From Naegleria gruberi (lineage: Eukaryota), in assembly GCA_000004985.1 (NCBI GenBank), contig GG738874.1: DNA of 64,000 nt; one strand, 5' to 3'. The position numbers were made by a program, and so were the translations under genes. The notes beneath the pieces were generated by a model. The model was not told the origin of the DNA and searched no databases. It saw only the letters and a list, made by a program, of their open reading frames with translations. Below, piece after piece: positions 13,345 to 63,842 of the stretch. Position 1 is the first letter of the stretch. The number at the start of each line of letters is the position of its first letter.

Positions 13345-15232
13345 ATGATAGAGAGAACGAGAAGAAATAATTATTTGGCTGTTGGACTTACTGTGGTAGT
13401 ACTGTTGCTGACGTGCTTTGAGCAGCAAGTAAAAGCACAAACATTATCGGCAGCAGATGTAGATATTGGTTGGACATTGTTGAACGGAGCCTTGGTTATG
13501 TGTAAGTTTTGCTCATCCACACATTGATTGTTGACACATTTATTGTGGCCATTATTGAATTCTCGGTGATTGTTCTTGTAACATTTTAAATCATTTGATG
13601 AAATCAAATCCTAAATAATTAATTAATTTGGACTTGAATAGTTATGCAAGCAGGGTGAGTGATATAATTTAATCCATTATTTCTAATTTGAGCTGTTATA
13701 AAGATTTGCATTTCTTGAAGCTGGTGGTGTTCGTTCTAAAAACGTTGCCAACATCTTATTGAAGATTGTCATGTCTGTTGCCATTTCAACAATGGCTTGG
13801 TTCTGTATTGGTTATGGAATTGCTTTTGGAGATAATGCAATGAGTGAAACTAGAAATGGATTCTTTGGCGTTTCGTCCTTCTTTTTATTGGGAGCTAATG
13901 AATCTCATCATATTTTCTTCTTTCAATGGAGTTTTGCTGCTGTTGCCAGTTCAAGTAAGTTTAGGCTTTTTGAATAATTTTTGACCTATTCGAATAGTTG
14001 TGAGTGGTGCCGTCGCTGAAAGAATGAATTTATCTGCATTCTTCATGTGTTCATTCTTAATGACTGCCTTTATCTATTCTCCAGTTGCTCACTGGATTTG
14101 GTCTACAACTGGTTGGTTATCAGGATTCAATAAGACTTTATTCAGAATTGGTACTGTCGGTGTCACTGATTATGCTGGTGGTGTAGTTGTTCACGTAAGT
14201 ATTTCGATATTCCATGAACATTCCAACATAATTGTGTAAATAGTTGACTGGCGGAATTTGTGGCCTTGTTGGAGCCATTATGGTTGGTCCAAGAATTGGA
14301 AGATTCGTCAATGGAAAAGCTGTCAAGATTGAAGGACACAACAAGACTCTTGTCTTGCTAGGAAGTTTCATTTTGTGGTTTGGTTGGGTAAGTATTATTT
14401 CAATAACTTGTAAATTCTAATTATGGAATAGTATGGTTTCAATGGTGGTTCAACTACTGCATTGAGTGGTGGCTTGTCCAAGATTACAAGTTACGCCAAT
14501 ACTAACACAACCATTGCTGGTGCTGCAGGTGCTCTCATGTGTATGTTTTGGTCTTGTCTTCAAAGTGGACAATATGACCTTACTGAAAGTTTGAACGGTT
14601 GTTTGGCAGGTTGTGTCTCAATTACACCAATTTGTGCCTTTGTTGAGCCATGGGCTGCTGTTCTGGTTGGTGCCACAGGTGCTATGGTTTATATTGGAGG
14701 TACTTTATTATTGGAATATTTACATATTGATGACCCTGTAAGTGCTGTTCCTGTTCATGCATTCTGTGGTGGATGGGGATTGTTCTTGGGAGGTTTCTTT
14801 GCCACAAAGGATTTGTAAGTACTTGTTCTCAAATATTAATACTGACCTAATGTTTCTCAAAATAGACTCATACTCTTCTATGGATTGGACAGTACCGATT
14901 TTGTGACCTATGGTGTCTTGTACAGTTTGAATTGGGAAATTTTGGGTGTTAACATGCTCGGTATTGCAGTTACCACCATTTGGGTTGCATTCTCTTCAGT
15001 AATCATGTTCTTCTTCATTGACATTACCATTGGTCTGAGAGTTCCTCCACAAGATGAATTAGTTGGCTTGGATCACAAGTATGGTGGTGTTGCCTACAAT
15101 AACGAAGATGTTCACCACTATGGTTTCTCAAACAGTGCCTCAGAGAGTACACTCGCTAACTCTGCCTATAAATCAGCCAGAAGTGCTGGTAGTAAAAGAT
15201 CTCACAGAAGAAAATCAGTTGCTAAACCATAA
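13345..15232 (+). CDS. amt: ammonium transporter (Amt/MEP family), tandem copy 3; micro-exon ttatgcaagcagg; N-terminal signal-peptide-like leader
   Basis: MIERTRRNNYLAVGLTVVVLLLTCFEQQVKAQTLSAADVDIGWTLLNGALVM|FMQAG|FAFLEAGGVRSKNVANILLKIVMSVAISTMAWFCIGYGIAFGDNAMSETRNGFFG...SGAVAERMNLSAFFMCSFLMTAFIYSPVAHWIWST...C-term ...LYSLNWEILGVNMLGIAVTTIWVAFSSVIMFFFIDITIGLRVPPQDELVGLDHKYGGVAY... Stop at 15232. Confidence 0.8.
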
Positions 15233-15901
15233 TTGTCATTGTGACAATACGAAACAATTCGATTTATCTGATTATGTATTATAAACTAATCATTCTTAAT
15301 ACTCAATATCGATTAATAGTCAATTACCATATGCAATTTTACAACAATACTTTACAATATCAATATGAAACTCTTTACTAGTAACTTAATCTTTTTGGAT
15401 TGACCTCATGGTCAGCACAAACTCCATAAACAATTTCAACAAATTATTGATCGCATAACATTGATTTCAACTCTTGATTATTTAAATTGTCAACTCTCCA
15501 TATTTTTTAGGAACTTTCTTAACCAATTGCTTTCAATAATCATCTTCCTCAATCGGACGAAAGTCAGAAAAAGAGTTTTACAAAAAATGAGCATTTTCAC
15601 CCAGAGCGAAGATGGCTATTATTATCAATCTCTTTATTTTGTATTGAGTTTCGAGTATTTAATCTGAAACAGTTTTTCAAAGTAAAGAAGAAAAAAAACG
15701 AAACTCTGGTGAAACTATTTTGTGGATTAGTGACCATCATTCTTTTGAGTACTATTAACGCAGTAATTGAACAATAACTTTCTAATACCTCTCCGAAACA
15801 CCGTTCATTTTAAAAGGAACATTGTTAACGAACTCATTTTTCAAACAATTAGAACATTAAGTTAAGAATCTAGACGAAACTATCAAAAAAAAGGAGAAAC
15901 A

Positions 15902-17199
15902 ATGCCCAATAATCAGCAGTTTAGAGCAATTCCTTCATCTTCATCACGAGCACTCGACATTTCTTCATCTACAGATCAAATACTTAACGGAGATTCGAAT
16001 AACAAGTTTCCAACAAGAGATTGTACCTCCTCAAACAGTACATCCACAACAACTGAAGATTATTCAGGGGAAGATGGTGCTGACTATCAATATGAAGATG
16101 GAGCTCTTCAAGAAGAAACAGAAGAAACTAATGGAGACGAAACTTATTCTAATCTTGATTTGAATACTGTCAAGTTATTTGTTGGACAAATTCCATACTC
16201 TTATGGTGAAGATAATTTATATCCATTATTTTCACAATTTGGTCCAGTTGCTGAAATTGTTGTGATTAGAGACAGATTTACATTCAAGTCAAGAGGATGT
16301 GCTTTCGTCTCATTTCGTAGTAAGCAAGATGCGGACACATGCATTAGAGAACTCAATCAAAGATTGAAACTGCCACCTGTAAGTATATTTGATATGTGAT
16401 AATTTTAACTTATTCGAATGGTTTCAATTGAACACCTTTTTTATTCGAAACTTAGTTAAATACCCCTCTCAGAGTTAAATATGCCTACACTGAGCAACAA
16501 TTAGATATTGTTAATGATAATTTTGTAAATAATGCTCCAAATCTAACTACTTCATCCTCGCCTAATGATTCCAATAGTGAAAAATCTCAAGATTTGACAA
16601 TTGCCTCAAATTTCCTCTCCTGTCTCAATATAGATAAGTATGAAATTGGCGTGCCTCATCCAGAAAACAAGCTCTTTATCAGAAATATTCCAAAGAATGT
16701 TACTGAAGATGAGCTCTCAACTCTATTCGAAAGTTTTGGCGAAATTCTTGACGTTGTCGTATTGAGAACGACCATTCATACTTCAAAGGGATGTGGTTTT
16801 ATCAAATTTACCAATTCAGAATCAGCTGATATGGTCATTAACACCTTCAAGAGAGAAATCATTTCACCAATTCAAGAATATCAACAAGGAGCTCAACAAG
16901 AAGGAACAACTATTGGTGGACCTTCTAATCAAAGATTGGTCGAGTTGACTAACAAGCTCCTAGAGAGTAGTTTCCTTATGAAGGGAGCTATCACTCCTCT
17001 ATTGGTTAGATATGCTGATAAGGATTATGTACCAAGTCAATCAACACAAGATGAACATGTCTATAATTCAACAACTACTGGTGGTCATGATTATCACTCT
17101 ACAAATGGAAATCATGGAGGTCATTACAATCCAAGAAGAAGGAAATCTTATCCATTGTCTTATCATAATAATAATAATAATAGAAGAGGATCCTATCAT
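15902..17199 (+). CDS. RNA-binding protein with at least 2 RRM domains (CELF/Bruno-like), 3'-truncated by the assembly gap; exon 1 15902..16378, intron 16379..16455, exon 2 16456 to the gap
   Basis: RRM1 is LFVGQIPYSYGEDNLYPLFSQFGPVAEIVVIRDRFTFKSRGCAFVSF (RNP2/RNP1). RRM2 is KLFIRNIPKNVTEDELSTLFESFGEILDVVVLRTTIHTSKGCGFIKF. PLRVKYAYTEQQ and PLLVRYADKD linkers resemble the ELAV/CELF 'VKFAD' motifs. The reading frame runs into the N run at 17200. Confidence 0.7.
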
Positions 17200-17991
17200 N
17201 NNNNNNNNNNNNNNNNNNNNNNNNNNNNNNNNNNNNNNNNNNNNNNNNNNNNNNNNNNNNNNNNNNNNNNNNNNNNNNNNNNNNNNNNNNNNNNNNNNNN
17301 NNNNNNNNNNNNNNNNNNNNNNNNNNNNNNNNNNNNNNNNNNNNNNNNNNNNNNNNNNNNNNNNNNNNNNNNNNNNNNNNNNNNNNNNNNNNNNNNNNNN
17401 NNNNNNNNNNNNNNNNNNNNNNNNNNNNNNNNNNNNNNNNNNNNNNNNNNNNNNNNNNNNNNNNNNNNNNNNNNNNNNNNNNNNNNNNNNNNNNNNNNNN
17501 NNNNNNNNNNNNNNNNNNNNNNNNNNNNNNNNNNNNNNNNNNNNNNNNNNNNNNNNNNNNNNNNNNNNNNNNNNNNNNNNNNNNNNNNNNNNNNNNNNNN
17601 NNNNNNNNNNNNNNNNNNNNNNNNNNNNNNNNNNNNNNNNNNNNNNNNNNNNNNNNNNNNNNNNNNNNNNNNNNNNNNNNNNNNNNNNNNNNNNNNNNNN
17701 NNNNNNNNNNNNNNNNNNNNNNNNNNNNNNNNNNNNNNNNNNNNNNNNNNNNNNNNNNNNNNNNNNNNNNNNNNNNNNNNNNNNNNNNNNNNNNNNNNNN
17801 NNNNNNNNNNNNNNNNNNNNNNNNNNNNNNNNNNNNNNNNNNNNNNNNNNNNNNNNNNNNNNNNNNNNNNNNNNNNNNNNNNNNNNNNNNNNNNNNNNNN
17901 NNNNNNNNNNNNNNNNNNNNNNNNNNNNNNNNNNNNNNNNNNNNNNNNNNNNNNNNNNNNNNNNNNNNNNNNNNNNNNNNNNNNNNNNNNN
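17200..17991. other. assembly gap (792 N); it truncates the 3' ends of two convergent genes
   Basis: Uninterrupted run of n characters from 17200 to 17991. Confidence 1.
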
Positions 17992-18464
17992 ATTTCATTT
18001 TCCGATTTCTTCTTGTATACCTTTGATGGAAGACCAATGACAGTTTCCTTTTCCTTATTCCACACTCTGAATTTGCTAAATACTTCTGGATTGCACAAAT
18101 CAGGCATTTGAAGCCCAATTCCTGATGTATATAATGCTCGCAGTGATTCCTTTTGCAATCTCAAGTTTGGTGTAAGTTTTGGATGTTTTTTATCAAATTC
18201 TTTATCGGAATGTTCCAAATATTTATCAATCAATTCAATCATTTCCTCCTCAGTACAACAAGTTTTCTTTACTCTAATATCTGCACCGAAAATTTGTTCG
18301 TGAATATAAAGATATCTCTTGAATGTTGGCACAACTTTAGTATCTCTGATTTGTTTTTGTTCCTTCTTTTTAAAGTCGTGAATACCCTGCTTCTTCATAT
18401 CGATAGCCTTTCGGGATTTTGGATGAACTGGTTTGGTGGTTGTGGCGTTTGCTCCTTTGGTCAT
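17992..18464 (-). CDS. TMA16: TMA16 (translation machinery-associated protein 16) homolog. The N-terminal ~158 aa are present; the C-terminus is lost in the gap
   Basis: ATG at 18464 gives MTKGANATTTKPVHPKSRKAIDMKKQGIHDFKKKEQKQI...CTEEEMIELIDKYLEHSDKEFDKK...GIGLQMPDLCNPEVFSKFRVWNKEKETVIGLPSK. This matches the TMA16 pattern (HP.SRKA...ELIERYL...G.GL.IPD..N...K.FREW) recalled from memory. The ORF runs into the gap. Confidence 0.55.
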
Positions 18465-18728
18465 TTTTTTTTTGAACTTCAAATAAAAAAATTTTCTTGT
18501 ATTTTTGATGATGAATTGTTATGCAAGCAAGAATTGCCTTCGGATTCGAGATGCTTTTCAATTTAGAGATGAATTTCTTTAATATTGGAGAGATGGATTG
18601 TTGTTGGAGGTGAGTGGAAGAGAAAATTATGCACTTGTCAATTTAATTTTGTTGTAAGAGGTTCAACAATGGAGAGAGTTAATAGCACTGTGTCGAGACA
18701 TTTTGTGATCAAAAAAGCTTTAAAAAAA

Positions 18729-19405: not shown

Positions 19406-21504
19406 GGGATATTATTGGCTCTCTAATGTCAGAAATGAACATATTTCGGGCTCGGGAGCATGAGTAATGCAAATGTCTGACTCAATAGCAAGTGCTGCAA
19501 TTGAGCTTGTAACACCACCTAAATTATAATTAATGTAAAAAAACAATTTCACACCATTAAAAACTTACATGCCCAAAAACATAGGAATCTCATCTTTATG
19601 TACTGTAGCTGAGTCTCCAAAGTCAACCTTACTCAAATCTCTTTAGGATCCGCAATGAATTGGTCCTCAGTGAGTTGTTGTGAATTGATCATTTGTCTGG
19701 AATTGATTGATTCAAATATTTCAAGTTTGGTTGTATCTTTCCAAGTTGTCGGCTGTTCCTGAAATTACTAATTTCTGTAGTTTGAAACGTCCTTGTTTGA
19801 GAGGACTCCAATACTGGACATGGCTAATGATTTAGCTTACAAAATTCTTCAAATTCTGTTACATACTGCAGGCAGAATGACTAAATCTTTACAAAATTAA
19901 AACTGCCCACAGCTCGGTTTTTACGCTGGTGTTTTTTCAATGTTGTTGGTGCATGAGAATCTGTGTGAAGAAGATTCAAGAATCCGTCAACCAGTGCGAT
20001 GACAGGTGCGAATGAAATTTGGCCTTTGAAACTTGGGGAAATAACTCGAAAATTAGTCCACAACATCAAAATCCAAAACATAGTAGTACTAACATACAAA
20101 AACCACCTCTTTAGGATGGTTTCATGTAGGTTTTGGAGAATATGAATTGGTGTTAGAATTACAGTACTTTAACCTATGGGTTAGAGTTGGCTTTCAACCA
20201 ACACTAATGTATGACAAATAAAAATTTAGCTTGTTGTTTGTAAAAATTCTTGTTTTATTTTTGTGGGTTGGAAGCAAGCTGGAAAGTGGGAAATAAATTT
20301 TTTCCTCAACTGATGGGTAAATGTTGAATCTAGTGAACGTAAACCACACAAGCAAACAAACCAGCTAGAAATTGCTAGCTGTGGGTTACCTTTAATTTTG
20401 TAAAGAAATTGGCCTGAATAAAGCCTTTAATCATTACAAAATAAATAATAAAATTCTCAATAAAATTCATATCCTGATGATACAATGCTCAAACTGTCCA
20501 TTCCGAATCAATCGACGAAATTGATAATAGGAGAATATCTTTTGCATTTTTTTTGTAAATTAAAATTGATTCGGCCAATCAAATTGAATTCACATCTACA
20601 GTAACAAGTTCATCAAAATGTTTGCAATTTTCCTTAATATGCCAAATTTCTGAAAAATAAAACTGTAATTGATAAATGTTACAAGTAACTTGAGAAACTC
20701 AAAGACTGTTCTTTCACTACCATTTTCGAATACAAGACAAGCATTTCTGGAAACCGTCTTACTGCTCATTACTGCCAATAATTCCTTCGTTCACAAATTT
20801 TCTAAAGTATCAACTTGCATTTCTTGTCGCATTCACAACTTACCTAAATAATTTATAATTACACGCCATCTTCAATAACTTTCGAATATTGTCATTAGCA
20901 ACACCCTATTTAGCAAGAAAGTTTTTATACAACCAGATATTCATGTTGGTACCCACTACCTCTAAATATTCATTTGTTGATGATAATTTGAGCATACCCG
21001 GGTACAAAGCAAAATCCCTTAAACCTCATCTTCACACAAACAATGAAGAGTATTGAGCACTTGCCTGATGAATCATTTCTCTAACAAAGCATTCCCGCTA
21101 TCAATTCTGACAATTGGTTAATAAAATTGTGCATCAGTCCAAAAAGAATTTCACGCCGGTATCTAATTTGAAACCGCTTACCATTTCCATGTTCATGCTT
21201 TCCTTTTCCATGTCGCAACATTTCTTCAATTTTCCCAAATCAACTTTTCCCTCCAAAACTGAATGGAAAAGAAAAAGTAAATTCATGTCGTGAAATTTAT
21301 TGTTTGAGGTACGTGAAGAAGAATCTTAAGCTTCTGTCTGTATTTGACTTTTATAATTGTTTTTGTTGAGGTGCATGAAGCAACTGTTTCATCATCTGCA
21401 ACGAAATCTTATTGTGAAAAAAACAACTCAAAATCCCCCTCTATTTCAAACACTACTCATTGCGAGTTTTGAAATTCAAATTTACCTCAACATACAACTA
21501 CAGA

Positions 21505-22503
21505 ATGACCCTATTAGATTCCGCCAATTTATTCTCCTCCTTTTCCATTCATACATTCAATACCACTGCCGCCAATGATTCCTCATCTGCTGCCTACTCA
21601 CCAACTCCCGCCAATTCTCGTGCTTGTTTAGCTTGTCGAATGGCCCATAAATCATGTGATAGAGCCAAACCTGCATGTTCGAGATGTATTTCGAGAGGCA
21701 TTGCTCATCTGTGCTGTGAACCATCGACTAAGAAGAGAGGACGACCAAGAAAATGGAAAGATTCTGAAAAACAAGACTCACCTCAAGAACAATATGAAGA
21801 AGAAATTAATTTCAATGCTAATAGTTCACCTCAACCTTCAAATAATGAATCATCATTGAGTCATAGTGAATCTGGAGTTTCGTCTCCAAGTGAGTTGAGT
21901 GCTCAATTGGGAGGTAATTCATCTCCACTCGTTTATAATGTTATTCCATCAAGTACATGCAAGTCACCTGTCGAAGAAGCCTTACTGACAGAAACTTTGA
22001 AAAAGACACAATCTAAAAAACTCAAGTTTATCAAGATTATGAACTATAACCCAAATCATAGAGAAACTTTCTCACCAAGATTTACAATTACTTCCTCAGA
22101 AAAGAAACATACTCTTTCCACACCTCAAGATAATCAACCTTCTCAAAAGAAGAGAAAGACCAAGTCAACTAATCCAATTCTTTCCTCTACTAACTACCAA
22201 ACCTCAACTGTCAGCCAACCAAGTCAACCACTTGTTGAAATTAATGTGAAATCTGTTCAATCCTCTCCTGTAACATCACCAAGTTCAGTTCCTACCCAAT
22301 TTTCTCCAATTCCTTCACCAACAGTTATATATTCGCAAACACCTTTCACTCAACCAACATTTATCCCAAACAATTCTCAATTTTACTATCCTACTGCCAT
22401 TTCTACTAACCAACCTCGTCATTGTGATGAGGGGCGAATTGTCAACAACAATCAAGTGAAATTACCTTCAATTTATAGCTTGCTTTCATCGCTCCAAGAA
22501 TAA
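21505..22503 (+). CDS. Zn(II)2Cys6 binuclear-cluster (fungal-type) transcription factor, Ser/Thr/Pro/Gln-rich C-terminus, 332 aa
   Basis: ATG at 21505. CLACRMAHKSCDRAKPACSRCISRGIAHLCC fits C-x2-C-x6-C-x6-C-x2-C-x8-C, followed by the basic linker KKRGRPRKWK. Low-complexity S/T/P/Q-rich remainder. Confidence 0.8.
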   Translation: MTLLDSANLFSSFSIHTFNTTAANDSSSAAYSPTPANSRACLACRMAHKSCDRAKPACSRCISRGIAHLCCEPSTKKRGRPRKWKDSEKQDSPQEQYEEEINFNANSSPQPSNNESSLSHSESGVSSPSELSAQLGGNSSPLVYNVIPSSTCKSPVEEALLTETLKKTQSKKLKFIKIMNYNPNHRETFSPRFTITSSEKKHTLSTPQDNQPSQKKRKTKSTNPILSSTNYQTSTVSQPSQPLVEINVKSVQSSPVTSPSSVPTQFSPIPSPTVIYSQTPFTQPTFIPNNSQFYYPTAISTNQPRHCDEGRIVNNNQVKLPSIYSLLSSLQE

Positions 22504-26660: not shown

Positions 26661-27723
26661 TTAAACAAAAATCAAAGCTTGTTGTGAATCAGGTGAGCCT
26701 TTTGTAATAGATGCAATAAAAGCATCACTCTTTGAACTCAAAAATTGTTTAAAAGTTGGCCAATTATAAACAAATCTTGGAAATGAATCAGTTTTCAAGT
26801 GAAGTTTCACTGCATTGGTAGCTGGTTGAAGAACTGACTCAAGTTGACCATTCCACATGACCAAATCTGTTTGTGTAGACAATGTATTCTTTAAATCTTC
26901 CCAATCCTTCAACAGTTTACTTCTCGTTCTATTATCAATATTAATTTCTCTACTCGATCCATGTTCAACAAATTCCTGTATTACCAATCTATCAAATTCC
27001 TCAATAAGAATTGATCCTTGTTTCTGAATTTGAAAACACGACTCCAAAAATTCGAATGGTTCAATATTATGTTCCTCGATAAGAAATTGTTTAAAGGTAT
27101 ATTTCATTTCCTCATTTTTCAATACACTGGAGAATTTAAACTTGACACTCGATGGAATATCCTTATGTTTTGATGGTGGAACAAGGTGAGTCTGAGCTGG
27201 TATTGAAAGAAATAACTTTAAATTCTGATTATTCAACAATACTGGATTATCAACAAATTCCAAAAGTAAATGTTGAAAGGCCTCTTTACGTTCAGCAATT
27301 AATTTCTCATTAAATTCTTTAAATTTATGAAATATGGTCCATATTTAAATATTATCAACTCTCTTACTTACTTTTGAAACTCTTTGGTGGAAAGATTGTT
27401 TTAAAATCTGAACTGGTCAACTTTCTACATTCATCGTGTAATAATTTAAAATCACTATAACGTTTTCTCGAGTTGTACACAATTCTAGTCTCTGGAAACC
27501 CCGATTTGACAACTTCTGTCTGTATTAAATAGGTAGTCTTGGCACCTAATCCCTTTCCTTTGACATTCGAATAATTTTAACATTATATTCGAATCATCAA
27601 AAATTAAAACAATAACTAACCTTCTTTCATAGGATCGCCAACTACAAGCGAGAAAATTCTGCAAACGCCCGAAGATGAATTTTTGGATGAAAAAGCCTCC
27701 ACGGGCTGTTGCTCTTTCATCAT
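26661..27723 (-). CDS. PX-domain plus RGS-domain protein (sorting-nexin-like). Three exons: 27723..27621, 27557..27372, 27316..26661
   Basis: Exon 1 MMKEQQPVEAFSSKNSSSGVCRIFSLVVGDPMKE; exon 2 GKGLGAKTTYLIQTEVVKSGFPETRIVYNSRKRYSDFKLLHDECRKLTSSDFKTIFPPKSFK (PX signature R[RK]RYSDF...FPPK); exon 3 ...FKQFLIEEHNIEPFEFLESCFQIQK... (RGS-box-like). Introns of 63 and 55 nt with GTTAGT/GTAAGT donors. Confidence 0.65.
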
Positions 27724-28008: not shown

Positions 28009-31000
28009 ATGGTTCAATGTGATTGTGGAGAGGAGGCTGCAAGTTTGATTGTTCGGAAAGAAGGACCAAACAAGGGACGTTCTTTTCATTCATGTGCTTC
28101 GAGAAGTTGTCAGTTTTTCAAGTGGGGTTCTGCAGAAAGTCAGCAACAGCAACAACCTTCATCATCAATCGGAAGAGTTTCATCTGCAAGTAATAATAAT
28201 AATAACAATGGAAAATCAACAACAATTAATAGGAATAATACAAGTAATCATACTCGTAATACAAACAGTATTGATGGCGATAATGATGATGATTTTGCAA
28301 CAGTGGATTTTTCTGCACCACCTTCTAGGAGAATTGTTGTCTCTAATAATTCATCAGCCAACAAAACAACAACAACAAATACAACAACAACCTCCAAATC
28401 AACCAATAATAGGCAAGCAGGGACATCATCCTCAACAAGTACTAATTCTTCATCACAAAAATCAAGTCGAGTAGATGATGTTTCGAGTGATGGGAAAACC
28501 ATTCCGAAATGTAAACATGGATTGGATACAATTCTGTTAAAGGTGAAGAAAGAAGGACCAAACCAAGGAAAGTTGTTTTGGTCTTGTACTGAGAAGGAAG
28601 ACTCTTGTCAATTCTTTGAATGGTTGAAAGGAAACGAAAATGATTATCTTCATCTATTGAATGTAAATCCAAACAAGAAGAAGAAGACAAAAGAATCCAG
28701 TAGTGATGAAGGTAGTAGCTCATCTGGCTCTGGAGAAAAGAAAAAATCATCCAACCATATTGAATTTGAAATTTGTACATTAGAGGTAAATGGTGACCAT
28801 GAATTGACAGTGAGAGAATTTGAAGATGATAATGCTCCAAACTCAGAAGGAATTACAGAAGATTATTCAAGGATGATGCAAAATTCTCTCGCTCTTAGAG
28901 TGTTAGTCTCTAAACGAATTGCTTCAAAAGTTGCTGAAGCTTTGAATGAATTCAATTGTTTGAATAAGCTTAAGGAAACAGAAAATGAAGACTCTGAGGA
29001 CGAAAAAAAGAAAGTTGATCTCTATTTTGAATATAAGAACTATTCAGCTATTTTGAAAAAAATCAAAAAACATGAACTTGCCTCCAAATGTAATATTGTG
29101 GAACTTCCTGATTTTGTTATTCGATTGTTAAAGAATTACTCTGAATTGACAGATAAGAATAGCAATATTGACCCTTGGAAACGTATTCCAAAACAATTAC
29201 AAAACTCATTCCTTCCCTTCCAAAAAATTGGTGTCGAGTTTGGAATTAAAAAAGAAGGCCGTGTTTTGATATCAGATGAAATGGGTCTTGGTAAAACCAT
29301 TCAATGCATTGCCATTGCTACACATTTCTCAAATGATTGGCCATTGTGGATTGTATGTCCAGGATCTTTAAAAGCTAATTGGAAAAAGGAAATTTTAAAG
29401 TGGATGGGAGGGCAAACTGTTAAAGTGGATGGTTCTGATGAATTTATAACTTCCATGCAAATTAATGTCATTGACAATAGCAGTCAAGTCAATAAGGGGT
29501 TTTCCCTTATCAATATTATTTCCTATGATTTGTTAGCGAAGGACAATATTATTTCATTGGTTGAAAAGGAATTTGAAAAGAAAAAGAAAGGTGTCATGGT
29601 TTGTGATGAGTCTCACTTGTTAAAGAGTTTATCTAGCAAGAGATCACAATCATTGGTACCACTTTTAGAGCAAGCTACTAGAACTATCCTTGCAAGTGGT
29701 ACAAGTTGCATGTCGAGACCAATTGAGCTTTTTTCTCAAATTAAGGCCATCATTGGAAAGAACAGTATCAAGAAGCTTGAATTTGGCTATAGATATTGTG
29801 GTCTTACTCAAAAACCAAAATATGACTCGGATTACAAAGGATCTAGTAGATTATCTGAGCTATATTGCCTACTTTCCAATACAATAATGATAAGAAGATT
29901 GAAAAGAGATGTTTTAACAGAGTTACCACCTAAAAGGAGGTCCAAGTACTATTTACATGTAAAGGAAGAAGATCTCAAACAAATTAATGGCATTGGAGGT
30001 GATTCTAAGAAAAAGTTCTACCAAAAAGATTGGGGTAAACTCCAGAAAGATAAGGATGTTATTGCTAAATATGTGAAAACTGCTGAGGCTAAAATAGATG
30101 GAATCAGGTCTTACCTCAGAAAAATTATTCCCAAGAAGGAGAAGTTTCTCATATTTGCTCACCATAGGCGTGTGATGGATGCAATAGAAGAAACTGTGAA
30201 ACAAGAGCTGTCATATTTAACAAAATATAGTCACTCAAGTGTTAGTGATGATATTCTGGAGGAGGATATTTTCACTACTAAGGGCTCTACACATGACGAC
30301 ATTGAGGAATTTGAGGATGATGATGTAAAAACTTACGAGTATATTAGAATAGATGGCGAGACAAAGGACAGAGAGGGATTAGCTCATCACTTCAGATCAA
30401 CTGAGAATTGTCTCGTTGCCATCCTATCTATGAATGTAGCAGGTTGTGGTCTTAACTTTGTGCCATGCTCTACTGTTGTATTTGCAGAACTGTGTTGGAA
30501 TCCAGCCTTACTCAATCAATGTGAAGATCGTTGTCACAGAATTGGACAAAAAGGAGCTTTTGTGGATATCACGTACTTATTGGCAAAGAAAACCTTGGAC
30601 GATTTCATGTGGGATTTATTAACCAAGAAGGCTGACATTACAGACCTTGCATTAAATGGTCAAAAAGAAGAGAAGTCATCTCACTTAACAAGAAGTGTGC
30701 AGGACATTACAACACCCAAAAAGAAGTCACTCTCCTTGGGGGGTAGTAGCTCAATAGAAAAGTATTTGAAACCCTCACCAACCACTTCAACAACCACAGT
30801 TACTGAATCCACAAGTTCATCACCTCCTAAGCTAGACGATTCTGTCATTATGTTAGATGATGACGATGATGATATTTCACTTAATTCAAATACAATCCAT
30901 TCCAAAAAGACAGATTCAAAAGAAGACAAATCATCATCCAGTAAGAAACGATCTTCCTCAACCATAACACCTCCTAACAATACCAAGAAGAAGCTTCTCT

Positions 31001-31047
31001 TCCCTACACAAAAGAACACCCTCTTCTCCTATTGTACAAAGAAGTAA
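28009..31047 (+). CDS. SNF2-family ATPase/helicase with two N-terminal GRF-type zinc fingers (1012 aa, intronless); SMARCAL1/ZRANB3-like subfamily is tentative
   Basis: GRF fingers CDCGEEAASLIVRKEGPNKGRSFHSCASRSCQFFKW and CKHGLDTILLKVKKEGPNQGKLFWSCTEKEDSCQFFEW. SNF2 motif I LISDEMGLGKTIQ, DESH box VCDESHLLKS, helicase-C motif VI ...QCEDRCHRIGQKGAFVDI. Long Asn/Thr/Ser low-complexity N-terminal stretches. Confidence 0.85.
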   Translation: MVQCDCGEEAASLIVRKEGPNKGRSFHSCASRSCQFFKWGSAESQQQQQPSSSIGRVSSASNNNNNNGKSTTINRNNTSNHTRNTNSIDGDNDDDFATVDFSAPPSRRIVVSNNSSANKTTTTNTTTTSKSTNNRQAGTSSSTSTNSSSQKSSRVDDVSSDGKTIPKCKHGLDTILLKVKKEGPNQGKLFWSCTEKEDSCQFFEWLKGNENDYLHLLNVNPNKKKKTKESSSDEGSSSSGSGEKKKSSNHIEFEICTLEVNGDHELTVREFEDDNAPNSEGITEDYSRMMQNSLALRVLVSKRIASKVAEALNEFNCLNKLKETENEDSEDEKKKVDLYFEYKNYSAILKKIKKHELASKCNIVELPDFVIRLLKNYSELTDKNSNIDPWKRIPKQLQNSFLPFQKIGVEFGIKKEGRVLISDEMGLGKTIQCIAIATHFSNDWPLWIVCPGSLKANWKKEILKWMGGQTVKVDGSDEFITSMQINVIDNSSQVNKGFSLINIISYDLLAKDNIISLVEKEFEKKKKGVMVCDESHLLKSLSSKRSQSLVPLLEQATRTILASGTSCMSRPIELFSQIKAIIGKNSIKKLEFGYRYCGLTQKPKYDSDYKGSSRLSELYCLLSNTIMIRRLKRDVLTELPPKRRSKYYLHVKEEDLKQINGIGGDSKKKFYQKDWGKLQKDKDVIAKYVKTAEAKIDGIRSYLRKIIPKKEKFLIFAHHRRVMDAIEETVKQELSYLTKYSHSSVSDDILEEDIFTTKGSTHDDIEEFEDDDVKTYEYIRIDGETKDREGLAHHFRSTENCLVAILSMNVAGCGLNFVPCSTVVFAELCWNPALLNQCEDRCHRIGQKGAFVDITYLLAKKTLDDFMWDLLTKKADITDLALNGQKEEKSSHLTRSVQDITTPKKKSLSLGGSSSIEKYLKPSPTTSTTTVTESTSSSPPKLDDSVIMLDDDDDDISLNSNTIHSKKTDSKEDKSSSSKKRSSSTITPPNNTKKKLLFPTQKNTLFSYCTKK

Positions 31048-41583: not shown

Positions 41584-44500
41584 CTACTCTTTCTTGGATG
41601 AAGGAATGAAAACTTCCTTAGCTGGGGCTCTATTATTGTAATTGGACGACATACTGAATCCATAACTTCCTGCTGTACAAATGCAAAGAACATCACCTTC
41701 ACGTGTTTCACTAGATATTGGTCTATCATTACCAAAAACGTCACCACTTTCACAAATTGGTCCCACAATATCGGCAACCATTGTACTTTCAGCTGGATCA
41801 TCACTATCAGGATTGCTGATCTTGGACAAGTTGACAATTTCATGATGGGAATTGTACAAGGTTGGTCTGATGAGTGAGTTCATACCAGTTTCAATACCAA
41901 TAAATAATTTGAAATTCTTATTCTTAATTTGTGTAACACGAGCTAACAAGACACCAGCATTGGCTGTCAAAAATCTTCCAGGTTCCATACAGAGCTTGAC
42001 ATTTGTTGGATTATTATTTAACTTGAATTCGGTCATAGCTTTAGCAACTTCGCCCAAATCCAATTCAGTTTGCTTGTAAGGCACATAAGGAACACCAAGA
42101 CCACCTCCACAGTCAATTAATTTAACATCTTTAGCCAATTTTGGATATTCTGAAATGAGTTGAGTCAATGTAGTAGCAGTCTTCTTCCATGCTTCAGCTT
42201 CATCCAAAATACCACTTCCAACGTGAGCATGCAATCCCATAACTGTAATACTAAATTGTTCACACAATTCAATGGCTTGAGGAATGTCACTAATGTGAAT
42301 ACCAAACTTGGATTGAACACCACTTGTTTTAACCTTAGCATGGTGACCCTTACCTGCACCTGGATCAATTCTCAATAGAACAGACTTACCCCTCAGTAAT
42401 TCTGACCAATTCATGAGTGGATAAAGAGAATCAATGGTTAACATGACTCCCAATGAGATAGCTTCTCTATATTCCTTCTTTGGAGCAAAGTTTGGAGTGA
42501 ACAAGATTCTACTCTTATCAATATTAGGGAAGAGATTACAGACCATTCTCACTTCATCAATGGAGACACATTCCAAACCGAAACCGATACCTTCGAATAT
42601 CTTGAGAATTTCAACATTTGGATTGGACTTGATAGCAAAGAAAATGGTATCAACTGGTCCTCCACACTTAGTTGAAATATTGATGAGCTTTTGAGCATTG
42701 GCATAAAATTGATCAACATCATAAACATAGAGAGGTTGATCTTCAGCTTGCATCAATTCGAGAAGTTGATTTTGCTTGACACGCCACCAAACATGTTTAC
42801 CACTGACATCGTTAATCTTTTGTTTTTGAGTTTCGAAAAGTTCAGTCCAAGATGGTCCAATATATTGGGAATCAATGGCTTGCTTAATAAAGACCCAATC
42901 GTGTAATTCTTTCAATAATTGTTCATTGGAATTGTTTTGATCGAGCAAGAAAGTCAAATTGACATCAGAGGCAGCCAAGGCAACAGAATGAATCTTTTGT
43001 CCAGAGAAATACTTCAAACCAGATGAAAGACGAGGCAAGAATGATCTAATATTCTTACCAATCAATGACAAGGCAGCACATGGTCCAATAATTTCAACTC
43101 TGCAATTCATAGATCTTAAATCATTAACAAGCTTGTTCAAAATATCATTGTCCAACTTGGCTGTAGCATCAAAAGTGATGGTAATATTGGCCTCAGAGGT
43201 TGTAACAAAATCTACAGAAATATTATACTTTTTGAATTTGGAGAAAACATCGGCCAAGAAACCAACTTTTTGCCACATATCCAATGTATCAATAGATACC
43301 ATAAGAATGTCTCTTCTGATACAGATGCACTTGACGTGTGGTGTCTTTTCTTCATAGGTTAAACTTGTGACGTGTTCTTCTGATGACTTTTCTTCATCAT
43401 TTTCACTTTGAATGAGAGTAATATATTCCTTATCAATTTGCCCAGATTGGAAACGTTTCAAAAGCTTGACAGATCTAATTCTAATTTGAATATCGAATTC
43501 TTGTAAGAGCTTGAGACTTCTTGGTTGTAAAATCTTAAAGTTATCAGAGGTGGCAATTTCTAATGCTTCATGATAAGATAATTCCAAAACAAACTTGGCA
43601 TTTGTTGTTTTCATGTCAGAGGATGTGTAAATTCCACCAGTATTTGTCCAAAAGTCCACTGAACCAATATCAAGTTTAGTAGCATAAATTGCCACAGAGA
43701 GGTCAGAATTTGAACCTCCAACTCCAAAGAGAACAACATCACCCTTTCCATCACAACCCATATTTCCTTGAGTGATGAGAATGTCTGCTTCACTGGTTTT
43801 TAATTCTTCAATTAAATCAGTATCAACGAGTGGAGAATCATAATTGGCTCTCAAATATTGGTCTTGCTTTCTTTGCTCGTAAATGGTAAAGTTGACCTTA
43901 TCACTGTGGGTCACTTCTTCAACAGCCGTAGTTAAATACTTCTTGCTATCTAACAAGGCAGCTGAAAATGAATGATTAATTTCTTCAGATTGTAAGAATT
44001 CTAACAAGAAATTGCAAACCATTTCACTATAATATCCAATAATTTTAGCAATAACCTTTGGTGTAGATTCTGATAATAAATTAACTCCAATAAGGGATTG
44101 TTTCATCTTTGCTCTATATTCATTAAAAGTAACAGTTTCAAGAGCTGGATATTGCTTGTACAATTGACAGAGTGGTTCTAAAAATTCAGTCAAATATCTT
44201 TCAACAATACTTTCAGATTGAAGTGATTCAAATGAATCATCATCCTTCTTTTGTGATAATGATTGAATATATTTCAACATTTTAGTACCTTCATCTTCAT
44301 TCAATGTAGAAGGAGCAACAATAATAATCTTTGCATTTTCATCCAATTCATGTAAACGTTTCTTCTCCGATACAATTTGGGACAAGATAAAATTCAAACC
44401 CTTCTTTTTAGTTAATAAACCAGAATCAAACGTGCACAAGTAAAATTTAGAATGATGATGAGTTTTCATCAATGAAAGAGTGTTTGATAAAACGGAACCC

Positions 44501-44646
44501 GAAGCAAAAACAGGAGAAGTTGAATATGATGATAAACTATTTATATGATGTGATGATGATTCAACTCCTTCAAATACTGTATTCTCATCCAACAAACGCT
44601 CCTCTCTTCTGAAGAAACTATCCGAACTATCAGAATTGTTCATCAT
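41584..44646 (-). CDS. lysAC: bifunctional aspartokinase / diaminopimelate decarboxylase (LysC-LysA fusion), about 1020 aa, intronless, with a ~100-aa Ser-rich N-terminal extension
   Basis: First ATG at 44646 (the ORF track starts at an upstream TTG). Aspartokinase core ...VVLFGVGGSNSDLSVAIYATKLDIGSVDFWTNTGGIYTSSDMKTTNAKFVLELSYHEALEIATSDNFKILQPRS... plus an ACT region. C-terminal PLP-dependent DAP decarboxylase (AIKSNPN Lys-PLP site, ...CESGDVFG..., ...CICTAGSYGFSMSSNYNNRAPAKE). Confidence 0.85.
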   Translation of the reverse strand: MMNNSDSSDSFFRREERLLDENTVFEGVESSSHHINSLSSYSTSPVFASGSVLSNTLSLMKTHHHSKFYLCTFDSGLLTKKKGLNFILSQIVSEKKRLHELDENAKIIIVAPSTLNEDEGTKMLKYIQSLSQKKDDDSFESLQSESIVERYLTEFLEPLCQLYKQYPALETVTFNEYRAKMKQSLIGVNLLSESTPKVIAKIIGYYSEMVCNFLLEFLQSEEINHSFSAALLDSKKYLTTAVEEVTHSDKVNFTIYEQRKQDQYLRANYDSPLVDTDLIEELKTSEADILITQGNMGCDGKGDVVLFGVGGSNSDLSVAIYATKLDIGSVDFWTNTGGIYTSSDMKTTNAKFVLELSYHEALEIATSDNFKILQPRSLKLLQEFDIQIRIRSVKLLKRFQSGQIDKEYITLIQSENDEEKSSEEHVTSLTYEEKTPHVKCICIRRDILMVSIDTLDMWQKVGFLADVFSKFKKYNISVDFVTTSEANITITFDATAKLDNDILNKLVNDLRSMNCRVEIIGPCAALSLIGKNIRSFLPRLSSGLKYFSGQKIHSVALAASDVNLTFLLDQNNSNEQLLKELHDWVFIKQAIDSQYIGPSWTELFETQKQKINDVSGKHVWWRVKQNQLLELMQAEDQPLYVYDVDQFYANAQKLINISTKCGGPVDTIFFAIKSNPNVEILKIFEGIGFGLECVSIDEVRMVCNLFPNIDKSRILFTPNFAPKKEYREAISLGVMLTIDSLYPLMNWSELLRGKSVLLRIDPGAGKGHHAKVKTSGVQSKFGIHISDIPQAIELCEQFSITVMGLHAHVGSGILDEAEAWKKTATTLTQLISEYPKLAKDVKLIDCGGGLGVPYVPYKQTELDLGEVAKAMTEFKLNNNPTNVKLCMEPGRFLTANAGVLLARVTQIKNKNFKLFIGIETGMNSLIRPTLYNSHHEIVNLSKISNPDSDDPAESTMVADIVGPICESGDVFGNDRPISSETREGDVLCICTAGSYGFSMSSNYNNRAPAKEVFIPSSKKE

Positions 44647-45062
44647 TTTTTTTAATTTCAATTTTTATTTAAAAACGAAAATTATAATTGTTAATACCCA
44701 AATATTAGATGTGATGATATCCAAGATGAAGTAATGACCTGTTTAATATTATTATAATTTAATCATGGTGATGACCTATTCATCTCAGAAAGTGGCCCTA
44801 ACCTTTTTTGGATATCTATTACAGTGTAACATTACTATGGGGATATCAAGAGATGATTTTGGCGCCAAATTTCAAAGCTTTGAAAATATCAAGGCTTTGT
44901 TAATTTAAAGTTTAACTCAATAATAGCAAGTAAAGGGAAACAAACTTTGTGCAAAGTAAAAAAAACAAACACAACATCACTCTCCATCATTCTCCTGATT
45001 GAGTCAATTCAAACAAGCCTTTCAGCACAAGATACAACACAGCAATCGTTCTCATCATTAGC

Positions 45063-46337: not shown

Positions 46338-48275
46338 ATGGGTCAACATCACACCTCCAATAATTCTGATGTAGCAACAATTCAAAATCCAGAAACATCA
46401 ACATCATCACTCGCTTCCAGTAGTCAGAATTTGATAGAACCAACACCACCTCTCACTCCCCGAAGTAGAAAACAAAGAGCAATATCAAATTTAAATTTAT
46501 CAACTGAATCCCTGTCAAGTCAAACGTCAAATTCATCAACACAAAATGTTAAAATATTATTACTAGGACTTAATGGAGCAGGTTTGTTTTTTCTCTTAGT
46601 TTTTAATATTTACTTTTGGATCCAAAATAGGAAAATCAACAATTATTAAAAAGTTGAAGGAATATATAACAGAAAAGAATTCATTACACGATGAAAATCT
46701 TGTAGATCATCTTGCTCTGAACAAAACTTTTAGAGATATTATTCATTTCCATGCATTGAATGGAATTAAACAATTAATTTTGGCATCTGAAAAGCTTGAC
46801 ATTTCCATTCTACCAAGACACTCTGAACAAAAGAATGATATTGAATTTGCCATCAGTTATTTGAGTAATTTACATTTTCGTTATGGAGAACATGTGTTGA
46901 CAAGTGAAGTTGCAAGATTAATGAAATTATTGTGGGAACAACGTGGAGCTAAGGAAATTCATTCGGAATTTATTGAATATAGAAATCAACAAGCACAATT
47001 GTTGCAACAGAAACAATTGAACGAAGCTGTTTCTGAAAATGCAACTGAAAATCATGAAAATCAAGAAAATCATGATGAAAAACAAAACGAAACTAGTACA
47101 AATGAAACTAATGCCAGTGCAACAACTGAAACTGCTAATTTGAATGAAACAGCAACTGAACCTTCAGCAGCTACTGTTGCCGAAACCGAAACAACTGAAA
47201 CCAATAATGAAGTGAACGAAACTGTTGCCGAAACTCCACAAGTCAGAGTTGATACTGAAGAAGAAGATGTAAGAGCAGTTGCCATCAATGACAAACACTT
47301 CAACGCAGGTGAAATCAATTGCTTTACTCTCTATAAGGATTTGTATAATTTGGACTTTTTCATGAGTAATATTGACAGAATTTCAGAGTTTGACTACGTA
47401 CCAACCGATGAAGATGTAAAATATTGTCAAACTCACTTGAAAGAAGAAAAGAAAGGTATTGAAGAAATTGAATTTGACTTTAGTGGTTCTAAATATACAA
47501 TTTATTGTGTGGAAGGTCAGAATAATGATGGAAGAAAGTGGCTCTTCCTCTTCCAAGGTGTGGACATTGTCTTATTCTTGTGTCCAATTGGTGATTTTGA
47601 TGTCATTCCATCATCACTCGATAGAAAGAATATTGTTCGTGAGAGGTAAGTGAAAATGATCTTGTTTTTATTGAACTATTTATTGTAAAATTATACTCAA
47701 CATACAGTTTGGACTTTTTCAGTAAAATGTGTAATAGTAAATGGTTCAGAAATACACCTGCCATCCTACTCCTCTCCAAATGGGATTCATTCCGTGAAAA
47801 GATTACCAATACTCCTCTAACTTTCTGTTTTGAAGATTACGATGGCGATCATCACAGTTATCAACATGCTCTCAAATTTCTCATTTCAAAATTCAATCAT
47901 GTGAGAGATAAGGAAGGAAAAGGACTCATCAATACCAATATTTATCAACAATTTTCCACAATGGACATGACTCACGAAGAGTTGGCCAATAATTTGGGAG
48001 GAACCATTAAGAATATTCGAATTGAACAGAAAGAAATGGAAAGAAAACAAAAGAGAGAATCCACTCATCGATTAGCTGGCGATCCAAACTCACCCAATAT
48101 TAGCTCAGCAGGTAGTCACACCCATTCCAATTCAAGTGGTGAGGCCATTTCACCAAAAAGTCCAGCTAGGTCAAATAGTGTGAATTCTTCGCCCTCTTCT
48201 GTCTCTACATCAGGAACTGAAAATATCAAACACAAATTATTTGCAGGACTTTTACAAAAATTAAAGAAAAAGTAA
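46338..48275 (+). CDS. heterotrimeric G-protein alpha subunit (divergent). Three exons: 46338..46581, 46631..47645, 47708..48275
   Basis: MG... N-terminus (myristoylation-type). P-loop KILLLGLNGAG|GKSTIIKKL. Switch/NKxD region ...YVPTDEDVKYCQTHLKEEKKGIEEIEFDF...YCVEGQNNDGRKWLFLFQGVDIVLFLCPIGDFD...RER|S|LDFFSKMCNSKWFRNTPAILLLSKWDSFREKI... and C-terminal ...FSTMDMT... The middle exon holds an acidic/Thr/Asn-rich insertion (ENHENQENHDEKQNETSTNETNASATTE...). Introns of 49 and 62 nt with GT..AG. Confidence 0.75.
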
Positions 48276-48443: not shown

Positions 48444-49238
48444 ATGCTTTCATTTCGTGCAAGCCAACTCAGACCACAAACTTTGTGTATTGTTACAGGT
48501 GCTTCTAAAGGCATTGGGAGGGAAATTACAAAACAATTATCGGAATGGGGAGTACATTGTGCAACGATAAGTAGATCGGAAATTGAGGCTAAGGATTTAT
48601 TTCCTAATCAATATCATTTTCCATGTGATGTTTCCAATGCTAAACAAGTCTCGGAGACAATTAAACAAATTTCGCAACAATTTGGTAAAAGTCATGCAAT
48701 GAATATGTTGGTGAATGCTGCTGGAATTTCCAAAGACGGACTATTGTTGAGGTTTTCTCAAGAGGATGTGGAGGAAATTATGAATATTAATTTGATGGGA
48801 ACTATTAATGTTTGTAAGAGCTCTCTCCGATACTTTATGTTGAGTCATTCGAGTGGTGAAATGCCTTCATCAATTGTTAATATTTCTAGTGTGATTGGTG
48901 GAACTCATATGACCAATGTTGGACAATCAGTTTATGCAGCATCTAAGGCAGGAGTTGTTGCCTTCTCTCAGAATTTATCTCGTGAGTTGCTTGGAAGAGA
49001 TGTCAGAGTTAATGTTGTTAGTCCTGGATTCATTGAAACTGAAATGACCAAACACATTTCGGATTCCATTTCAAAAACATCAAGTGAACAAAAGAATGAA
49101 ATGGTTCAAAAGATTGAAAAGGTGAGAATGGGAAAGCCAAAAGATGTTGCCAGTATGGTTCGATTCCTTCTTTCAGAGCAATCAGAATATATTAATGGAC
49201 AAAATCTTGTTGTGGATGGTGGATTATCGTTATTGTAA
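48444..49238 (+). CDS. 3-oxoacyl-ACP reductase-like SDR (FabG/CBR4-type), 264 aa, possible mitochondrial presequence
   Basis: CIVTGASKGIGREIT Rossmann motif, NAAG, and catalytic S...YAASKAG (YxxxK). N-terminal MLSFRASQLRPQT is basic and hydroxylated. Confidence 0.8.
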   Translation: MLSFRASQLRPQTLCIVTGASKGIGREITKQLSEWGVHCATISRSEIEAKDLFPNQYHFPCDVSNAKQVSETIKQISQQFGKSHAMNMLVNAAGISKDGLLLRFSQEDVEEIMNINLMGTINVCKSSLRYFMLSHSSGEMPSSIVNISSVIGGTHMTNVGQSVYAASKAGVVAFSQNLSRELLGRDVRVNVVSPGFIETEMTKHISDSISKTSSEQKNEMVQKIEKVRMGKPKDVASMVRFLLSEQSEYINGQNLVVDGGLSLL

Positions 49239-50800: not shown

Positions 50801-51105
50801 TTATTGTTGTTGGTTTTGCATCACGAGAGAAATTTCCTTTTGGGCATCAAAGAATTTATCAACACATGAATCAATACACTTCTTTTCATAGTCATCCAAA
50901 TCCTTTCCGTAAGCAGTCAAACACTTTTTATTGCAGACTGTGAGCATACTATTTTGATAAAATGGAAAAATAATCATCACAACAAGTGTGATTTGCACAT
51001 TAAATAAAATCATCAATATTTAGATACATACTTGAAGTAGAGAGTTCGGAAAGCTTCCAATTCAACCATAGACACTTGTCCACCCATTGGGTTCATTTGA
51101 TTCAT
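50801..51105 (-). CDS. TIM10: small Tim (Tim10-like) mitochondrial intermembrane-space chaperone, twin CX3C. Two exons: 51105..51033 and 50949..50801
   Basis: Exon 1 MNQMNPMGGQVSMVELEAFRTLYF(N) plus an 83-nt GTATGT...AG intron, then exon 2 MLTVCNKKCLTAYGKDLDDYEKKCIDSCVDKFFDAQKEISLVMQNQQQ*. Twin C-x3-C motifs and an overall Tim10-like pattern ([21 protein letters not shown]...CLDRCVAKYF). Confidence 0.7.
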
Positions 51106-63792: not shown

Positions 63793-63842
63793 NNNNNNNN
63801 NNNNNNNNNNNNNNNNNNNNNNNNNNNNNNNNNNNNNNNNNN
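63793..63842. other. assembly gap (50 N)
   Basis: Run of n characters. Confidence 1.

Follow-up and report, generated by a model that had tools for sequence, protein, structure and literature searches.

Can a G-alpha protein still work as a GTP-driven switch when the residues that handle its nucleotide have been replaced at several of the positions that define the family? The question is raised by a gene at 46338-48275, on the plus strand, of a 64,000-nucleotide stretch of Naegleria gruberi DNA (assembly GCA_000004985.1, contig GG738874.1; this whole stretch is termed the window below). The initial annotation of the locus described a divergent G-alpha subunit carrying a long acidic, Thr/Asn-rich insertion and altered catalytic residues, and suggested that loss of the arginine finger would impair intrinsic GTP hydrolysis, leaving a slow-cycling protein that may depend on GTPase-activating proteins (GAPs). 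On the sequence and structural comparisons reported here, a normal GTP-hydrolysing switch function probably cannot work in this protein. The answer we favour, at about even confidence, is that it is an atypical, membrane-tethered G-alpha that is still able to bind nucleotide but has little or no capacity to hydrolyse it, and that acts outside the canonical switch as a static or constitutively "on" adaptor.

By profile and by fold the protein is a divergent member of the G-alpha family, as had been proposed. It matches the Pfam G-alpha profile (PF00503) at E=6.6e-65 and 219.9 bits, the gathering cutoff being 48.8, and its closest sequences in the PDB, as ranked by phmmer, are those of G-alpha-i1 and G-alpha-i3 (~1e-36 to 1e-37). 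An AlphaFold2 (AF2) model built on an 82-sequence alignment places 301 residues at a predicted local distance difference test score (pLDDT) of at least 90, and predicts all of beta1-beta6, alpha1-alpha5 and the helical-domain helices alphaA-alphaF; the Ras-like domain and the all-helical domain between alpha1 and beta2 that mark the G-alpha fold are both present, with core pLDDT above 90. When the model was compared with the PDB using Foldseek, the top 50 matches were G-alpha chains throughout (E ~1e-17, probability 1.00). The global template-modelling (TM) score reaches only ~0.55, owing to a difference in domain orientation and to disorder in a third of the chain. Three disordered low-complexity segments flank or break the fold: the N-terminus (residues 1-64, pLDDT below 50 and with no Pfam domain), an insertion in the alphaD-alphaE loop, and a C-terminal linker. 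No alphaN helix is predicted in the model.

The elements on which the question turns are these, in residue numbers of the spliced product:

46338-46358, plus strand: MGQHHTS, an N-myristoylation-type signal by sequence pattern
46566-46641, plus strand: G1/P-loop GLNGAGKST, residues 77-85, spanning intron 1, with GxxxxGK[ST] retained
46984-47328, plus strand: insertion of ~115 residues (200-314) in the alphaD-alphaE loop of the helical domain, relative to G-alpha-i1
47416-47472, plus strand: linker 2/switch I, VKYCQTHLKEEKKGIEEIE, residues 344-362, placed by alignments
47506-47562, plus strand: G3/switch II, CVEGQNNDGRKWLFLFQGV, residues 374-392, placed by alignment
47775-47786, plus strand: G4, SKWD (within LLLSKWD), in exon 3
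47952-47966, plus strand: G5, FSTMD, degenerate, in exon 3
48225-48272, plus strand: C-terminal motif IKHKLFAGLLQKLKKK, residues 593-608, conserved, basic and amphipathic, in exon 3

To count substitutions we aligned the protein and its relatives by MAFFT with 71 canonical G-alphas; human G-alpha-i1, included among the latter, gives the numbering. The P-loop has the general form GxxxxGK[ST], with the equivalents of Lys46, Ser47 and Thr48 retained; the stringent G-alpha form, G[ATQP]G[ED]SGK[ST], is absent, since Gly42 is replaced by Asn79 and Glu43 by Gly80 (canonical G in 64 and E or D in 60 of the 71). Linker 2/switch I exceeds its canonical counterpart by four residues (DVKYCQTHLKEEKKGI versus DVLRTRVKTTGI), and switch I itself, QTHLKEEKKGIEE, has no Arg at all and neither Ser nor Thr at the conserved Thr position. 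HLKEEKKGI thus stands where the G2 motif, RxxTxGI, is expected: Thr181, which is T or S in every canonical sequence, has become Lys355, and Thr182 (T in 57, S in 5) has become Lys356, Gly183 (G in 67) being retained as Gly357. The sole Thr in residues 344-362, T349, is not conserved among orthologs. At G3, CVEGQ is found for DVGGQ, Cys374 replacing Asp200 and Glu376 replacing Gly202, each invariant in the canonical set, whereas Gly203, Gln204 and Trp211 (conserved in 71, 70 and 71 sequences, respectively) are retained as Gly377, Gln378 and Trp385. G4 keeps the K and D of NKxD (Lys270 and Asp272, 71 each) and loses the N, Asn269 (N in 70) being replaced by Ser443. The G5 box, mostly T-C-A-T in canonical proteins, is lost: it reads STM here and varies among orthologs (STM, FTK, VTK). 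By this comparison, G2 and G5 are gone and G3 and G4 are half preserved.

Set beside these changes, loss of the switch-I Arg is the mildest. Residues 344-362 of the N. gruberi protein contain no Arg whichever alignment is used, so that the alignment with reference G-alphas uncovered no shifted copy in this segment, and the catalytic Gln is in place as Gln378. The position of Arg178 is occupied by Lys352 in MAFFT alignments of 6 and of 82 sequences, a conservative replacement (canonical R in 68, K in 3), and the Willaertia ortholog has Arg there; a HMMER pairwise alignment spreads the gap differently and sets His350 opposite Arg178. The claim that the Arg is lost therefore stands for the N. gruberi protein, but in this softened form. 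As far as it went the early inventory of motifs was correct, with the P-loop GLNGAGKST, CVEGQ and LLLSKWD all present as described; it missed the replacement of Thr181 and Thr182 by Lys and of Gly42 by Asn, the loss of TCAT, the longer switch I and the replaced C-terminal tail.

The missed changes alter the expected biochemistry. Replacement of Arg178 lowers GTP hydrolysis, as G-alpha and Ras mutants show, and in both groups of proteins Mg2+.GTP binding and the conformational switch require the Thr of switch I and the Asp of G3. From the behaviour of G-alpha-i1 and G-alpha-s mutants the altered catalytic machinery should indeed impair intrinsic hydrolysis, as was first suggested, but the Arg alone is too narrow a basis for saying so. 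Substitutions of Gly42 are also damaging, G42V being GTPase-deficient and G42R unable to reach the active conformation (PMC9283941). In the N. gruberi protein both Mg2+-ligand positions (Thr181 and Asp200), Gly42 and Gly202 have all been replaced, a combination that points to a non-canonical nucleotide state rather than to simple slow cycling.

The unusual motifs are not peculiar to N. gruberi. Orthologs are present in N. lovaniensis (C9374_011416, P0001; 615 aa, 57% identity), N. fowleri (XP_044559855.1, P0166; 615 aa) and Willaertia magna (ABK040_009791, P0002; 479 aa), and environmental fragments provide further matches to this orthogroup. Five features are common to the proteins of all four species: an MGxxx[ST] start, a switch I of the form HL[KR]E[ED]KKGIEEIEF, CVEGQNNDGRKWLFLFQGVDIV, [ST]KWD, and a C-terminal KLF[AS]GL[LI]xKLKK. 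Relative to the N. gruberi protein, the G3/switch II segment (374-392) is 100% identical in N. fowleri, N. lovaniensis and W. magna alike, linker 2/switch I (344-362) is 89%, 89% and 79% identical, respectively, and the C-terminal motif (593-608) 75%, 75% and 62%; the P-loop GK[ST]T is kept throughout the orthogroup. Judged by these identities, the odd motifs are under purifying selection, and conservation peaks where the protein is least canonical.

The start shared by all orthologs matches the N-myristoylation consensus. At the other end the receptor-coupling tail of canonical G-alphas has been replaced by a long linker and a KLFxGLLxKLKKK helix: all orthologs terminate in K.KLF[AS]GL[LI].KLKK after a variable Ser-rich linker, and the AF2 model predicts a short terminal helix at this motif.

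The account we favour would assemble these features as follows. The protein would be tethered to a membrane; guanine nucleotide would still be bound, through the intact P-loop and [ST]KxD; and GTP would be hydrolysed very poorly or not at all. The canonical Mg2+.GTP-driven switch would not be performed and, because it cannot run, the protein would serve as a permanently "on" or static signalling adaptor whose invariant, non-canonical switch I/II surface contacts a partner. Regulation would be expected to lie outside the cycle of G-protein-coupled receptors (GPCRs) and regulator of G-protein signalling (RGS) proteins, for example in phosphorylation of the Ser/Thr-rich disordered segments or in the C-terminal helix. 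Such behaviour is known elsewhere: septins of the SEPT6 group, which lack the switch-I Thr, and the Rnd and RhoH proteins have lost catalytic residues and kept the P-loop, and are constitutively nucleotide-bound and non-cycling. These belong to different GTPase families, and the analogy with them is mechanistic only.

Several points weigh against this account. Lys352 (Arg in Willaertia) together with the retained Gln378 could sustain some hydrolysis, and Glu376 might take over metal binding from the missing Asp. Myristoylation, and attachment of the C-terminal helix to membranes, are predictions from sequence patterns, and the AF2 model, being ligand-free, is silent on the binding pocket. Without G5 and Asn269, affinity for nucleotide may be so low that the protein is nucleotide-free in vivo, by analogy with what has been proposed for XLG2, one of the XLG proteins of plants. 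Finally, loss of the P-loop Lys in three distant relatives (P0003, P0015 and P0016) suggests that the core function of the family could be independent of nucleotide.

The last two points are the substance of a rival explanation, in which the protein is a pseudo-GTPase that no longer takes up guanine nucleotide at the concentrations found in cells and serves solely as a scaffold, the role put forward for Arabidopsis XLG2. The relatives that bear on it came from an exhaustive HMMER profile search of 1.84 billion representative proteins, which set apart a small, distinct group scoring above ~225 bits; below it came two canonical G-alphas that are tandem or partly duplicated, at 203-213 bits, and single-domain canonical proteins, at ~180 bits or less. 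Additional members of the group are P0015, P0016, P0017, P0018 and P0020, plus P0003. Common to these distant relatives are a longer, Thr-less switch I, xVEGQ or xVKGK for DVGGQ, [ST]K[FYWH][DE] for NKxD, MGxxxS starts and C-termini of the FFSxL..K type, and in two of them Lys replaces the catalytic Gln. P0003, P0015 and P0016 have GLPGSGVMN, GLQDSDRML and GLPSSGGTI, respectively, in place of the P-loop, and retain the rest of the fold. P0003 is encoded at positions 6001-7071 of L001, an intron-poor contig of 26% GC; an SF3b1 gene neighbours it, whose best matches, ~70% identical, are scattered over unrelated eukaryotes and give no taxonomic resolution.

Loss of the P-loop Lys in these relatives is the main argument for a nucleotide-free protein. 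Loss of a G5 box that now varies from ortholog to ortholog, replacement of Asn269 by Ser and loss of both Mg2+ ligands all tend the same way, and XLG2 offers a precedent (PMC8584482). Within the Naegleria/Willaertia orthogroup, however, there is no variation in GxxxxGK[ST]T or in the Lys and Asp of [ST]KWD, while adjoining segments without a function change freely; continued binding is the simplest explanation. It is because GK[ST]T and K.D are so strictly conserved there that we prefer nucleotide binding, and we regard the nucleotide-free scaffold as rather improbable.

By their shared sequence traits, the distant relatives and the orthogroup may form a wider "pseudo-G-alpha" family. A bolder proposal, which we consider very doubtful, would make this an undescribed family of myristoylated proteins in which a conserved Lys or Arg at the Thr181 and Thr182 positions and a conserved Glu at the Gly202 position replace the Mg2+ site, allowing Mg2+-independent nucleotide binding and possibly Lys-based catalysis. 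The invariant switch II and the family-specific C-terminal amphipathic helix would then couple it to partners that are neither GPCRs nor G-beta-gamma nor RGS proteins.

The remaining functional alternative is the slow cycler of the initial annotation: an otherwise conventional G-alpha whose hydrolysis relies on RGS proteins, possibly ones encoded nearby. RGS proteins contribute no arginine finger; they dock on switch I. Berman and colleagues are said to have found in 1996 that they accelerate hydrolysis by Arg-finger mutants of G-alpha-i1, and in the structure of RGS4 with G-alpha-i1, Thr182 is reportedly the central RGS contact. The N. gruberi protein keeps Gln378, Gly377 and Trp385 and has a basic residue at the Arg position, all compatible with GAP-assisted catalysis, and RGS proteins with a seven-transmembrane region are known to act as GAPs on Naegleria G-alphas (PMC9283941). 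Of the RGS contact itself, Gly183 is kept but Thr182 is replaced by Lys356, and with Thr181 and Asp200 also lost the RGS-stabilised transition state could not form in the canonical way.

Nor does the neighbourhood lend this alternative much. Several RGS-domain genes had been placed within 30 kb of the locus. We searched the window with Pfam, on all large open reading frames (ORFs) and on concatenated small ones, and with phmmer, using Naegleria and human RGS queries against every six-frame ORF of at least 30 aa, and found a single RGS domain (PF00615, E=5.5e-11), in ORF 26664-27344 on the minus strand, 19 kb upstream of the G-alpha gene. The gene to which it belongs (26664-27576, minus strand) has a PX-RGS, sorting-nexin-like architecture: ORF 26664-27344 opens with the C-terminal part of a PX domain (PF00787, E=7e-4), and an upstream exon at 27367-27576 (minus strand) is PX-like by eye and on its own has no Pfam match. 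A PX-RGS gene 19 kb away can be counted in favour of GAP dependence; against this, it is one gene and not several, its architecture is that of a sorting nexin, and in this eukaryote gene proximity need not imply a functional link. The clustering claim thus fails and, because the main RGS contact, Thr182, is replaced by Lys356, we judge RGS-dependent slow cycling unlikely.

The helical-domain insertion, first put at ~100 residues, is real and coding. Its core, residues 205-283 (46999-47235), consists of ~80 residues of low complexity, rich in E, T, N and A, with a net charge of -16; its C-terminal part (from VDTEEEDVRAVA to FNAGEINCFTLYKDLYNL, with the pattern VD.EEEDV.AVA ... FNAGEINCFTLYKDLYNL) is conserved within Naegleria. 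AF2 pLDDT is below 50 over residues 239-308. Every ortholog carries an insertion at the same site, but identity over the low-complexity stretch (200-283) is only 8% in N. fowleri, 13% in N. lovaniensis and 1% in W. magna, the core being Gln-rich in the first two and ~30 residues long in the third. An unrecognised intron was considered as its source and rejected on composition (GC 0.37), on codon periodicity (GC of 0.54, 0.37 and 0.20 at the three codon positions), on the absence of any donor-like hexamer in the insertion, and on its presence in all orthologs; a tandem-repeat origin was likewise rejected, the sole repeat being one of 9 bp x 3.3. The insertion would best be viewed as a fast-evolving disordered loop rather than an element of the functional core. 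In a different paralog, N. fowleri G-alpha6, low-complexity sequence is likewise inserted immediately before switch I (PMC9283941), and for that reason this loop seems to tolerate such insertions in Naegleria.

The gene itself is real, intact and previously annotated. It begins with the ATG at 46338 and ends with the TAA closing at 48275, and consists of three in-frame ORF pieces that join (46338-46581, 46631-47645, 47708-48275) into an intact coding sequence of 1827 nt specifying 608 aa:

46338-46581, plus strand: exon 1, residues 1-81 plus 1 nt; start codon, MGQHHTS, disordered Ser/Thr-rich N-terminus, beta1 and first half of the P-loop
46582-46630, plus strand: intron 1, 49 nt, GTTTGT...ATAG, GC 0.22, interrupting the P-loop codons (GLNGAG|KST)
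46631-47645, plus strand: exon 2, residues 82-420; remainder of the P-loop, helical domain with insertion, switch I, G3/switch II and alpha3
47646-47707, plus strand: intron 2, 62 nt, GTAAGT...ACAG, GC 0.23
47708-48275, plus strand: exon 3, residues 421-608 and stop; G4, degenerate G5, extended alpha5, Ser-rich disordered linker and C-terminal motif

The product is identical at every residue to N. gruberi XP_002676030.1 (EFC43286.1; UniProt D2VIK5), publicly annotated as "guanine nucleotide-binding protein G(i) subunit alpha", and the two-intron model given earlier agrees with the public one. Both introns are GT..AG, with GC of 0.22-0.23 compared with 0.345 in exons, and retention of intron 1 leads to a stop codon (ORF 46338-46649). 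Ortholog proteins are continuous and colinear across both junctions (GLNGAG|KSTII and NIVRE|SLDFF), and Willaertia has an intron at about the place of intron 2. The metagenomic ORF calls P0010 and P0011 extend into intron 2.

Many substitutions at otherwise invariant positions and a long low-complexity stretch are also what a decaying pseudogene or a mis-annotated model would show, the odd motifs and the insertion then reflecting lost constraint or a missed intron. The spliced reading frame is uninterrupted, though, and full-length orthologs exist in three other species, with colinear exon junctions and the insertion at the same site; switch II and switch I are 100% and 79-89% identical among orthologs; and the insertion, with more GC than the 0.22-0.23 of the introns, a strong codon-position asymmetry and no donor-like motif, reads as coding sequence. 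It is this pattern of conservation that excludes a pseudogene or annotation artefact in practice, and we give the idea almost no credence.

The immediate neighbours are unrelated to G-alpha: a kinase-ACT-decarboxylase fusion, an unknown ORF, an SDR gene and a GDPD gene, the next gene downstream (48444-49238) being that of N. gruberi XP_002676031.1. No conserved synteny was seen with the Willaertia locus, whose neighbouring genes differ. The fusion gene (41587-44661, minus strand) is a 1025-aa ORF with amino-acid kinase, ACT and pyridoxal phosphate-dependent Orn/DAP/Arg decarboxylase domains, and could encode an aspartokinase-diaminopimelate decarboxylase fusion combining the first and last steps of lysine synthesis.

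Other features of the window were recorded in passing. At ~8600-16400 (plus strand) lie three apparent tandem, multi-exon ammonium transporter genes (PF00909 in ORFs 9622-10215, 11831-12184 and 14432-14815, E=1e-17 to 1e-34), whose near-identical exon peptides point to recent tandem triplication. A 1402-aa protein encoded at 1446-5651 (minus strand) has teneurin-type NHL and EGF repeats (PF25021, E=3e-58; PF25024; PF23106), here in a heterolobosean amoeba, and an ORF at 21460-22503 (plus strand) matches the "fungal" Zn(2)-Cys(6) binuclear cluster domain only marginally (PF00172, E=5e-5, 23.7 bits with a cutoff of 21). An SNF2-family helicase with two N-terminal GRF zinc fingers is encoded at 28009-31047 (plus strand; PF00176, PF06839, PF00271), and a small ORF at 50804-51019 (minus strand), in which a Tim10/DDP zinc finger is recognised (PF02953, E=5e-9), probably encodes a small Tim chaperone. 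Runs of N mark assembly gaps at 17200-17991 (792 bases) and 63793-63842 (50 bases); the long "ORFs" spanning 16594-18482 on both strands are artefactual within the first gap, with genuine RRM and Tma16 domains on either side of it.

How far does the protein depart from G-alphas already studied? With canonical members (G-alpha-i1, and N. fowleri G-alpha1-7; Bosch et al. 2022, PMC9283941) it shares the two-domain fold and an MG start that signals lipid modification, and it is 27-30% identical to typical ones; GxxxxGKS, the G3 Gly-Gln, the Trp of switch II and the Lys and Asp of NKxD are also held in common. It differs from them in lacking the Arg finger, the switch-I Thr, the G3 Asp, the NKxD Asn, TCAT and a predicted alphaN, and in having Asn for Gly42, Glu for Gly202, four more residues in switch I and a replaced receptor-binding C-terminus. 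Bosch et al. list 13 G-alphas of N. fowleri, six of which (G-alpha1-3 and 5-7) were made as recombinant proteins for biochemistry; G-alpha9-13 were not cloned (PMC9283941), and the ortholog of the present gene may be among them. The accession numbers of the N. gruberi gene are not mentioned in the literature searched.

A functional parallel, and a worked example of action that does not depend on nucleotide state, is offered by plant XLG1-3, G-alpha-derived proteins with weakly conserved nucleotide motifs that are proposed to be independent of the nucleotide cycle and regulated by phosphorylation (PMC8584482). The resemblance is one of analogy and not of membership. The two have independent origins, and the N-terminal extension of XLGs, which carries nuclear localization and export signals (PMC8584482), has no counterpart in the Naegleria protein, whose N-terminus is a 64-residue Ser/Thr-rich disordered segment. 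The Naegleria protein also differs in its P-loop, which is intact, and in the extreme conservation of its odd switch regions; G-beta-gamma interaction is a property shown for XLGs. That catalytic motifs deviate in some G-alphas of Dictyostelium, Naegleria and plants is noted in the review PMC8584482, which cites Anantharaman et al. 2011, and is taken to suggest reduced or lost nucleotide-dependent activity; this is the same phenomenon in the same organism. The review also credits N. gruberi with perhaps 44 G-alphas.

The significance of the locus is bounded accordingly: the gene was already annotated, the general phenomenon is already in the literature, and the role proposed is a predicted one. 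What is new here is a switch II that is invariant though non-canonical, the replacement of both Mg2+-ligand residues, a C-terminal helix specific to the family, and distant relatives that lack the P-loop Lys—modest additions that would not surprise specialists. The Naegleria G-alpha repertoire is nevertheless reportedly among the largest known, with 44 members in N. gruberi and 13 in N. fowleri, of which biochemical study has reportedly reached only N. fowleri G-alpha1-7, and through its ortholog XP_044559855.1 the gene forms part of the signalling repertoire of the latter, a pathogen. Within that repertoire it is a specific and well-conserved candidate for a G-alpha that does not cycle, from outside the plants, and, with switch regions more constrained than the remainder of the protein, it would provide a clean test case for reuse of the G-alpha scaffold after loss of the GTPase cycle.

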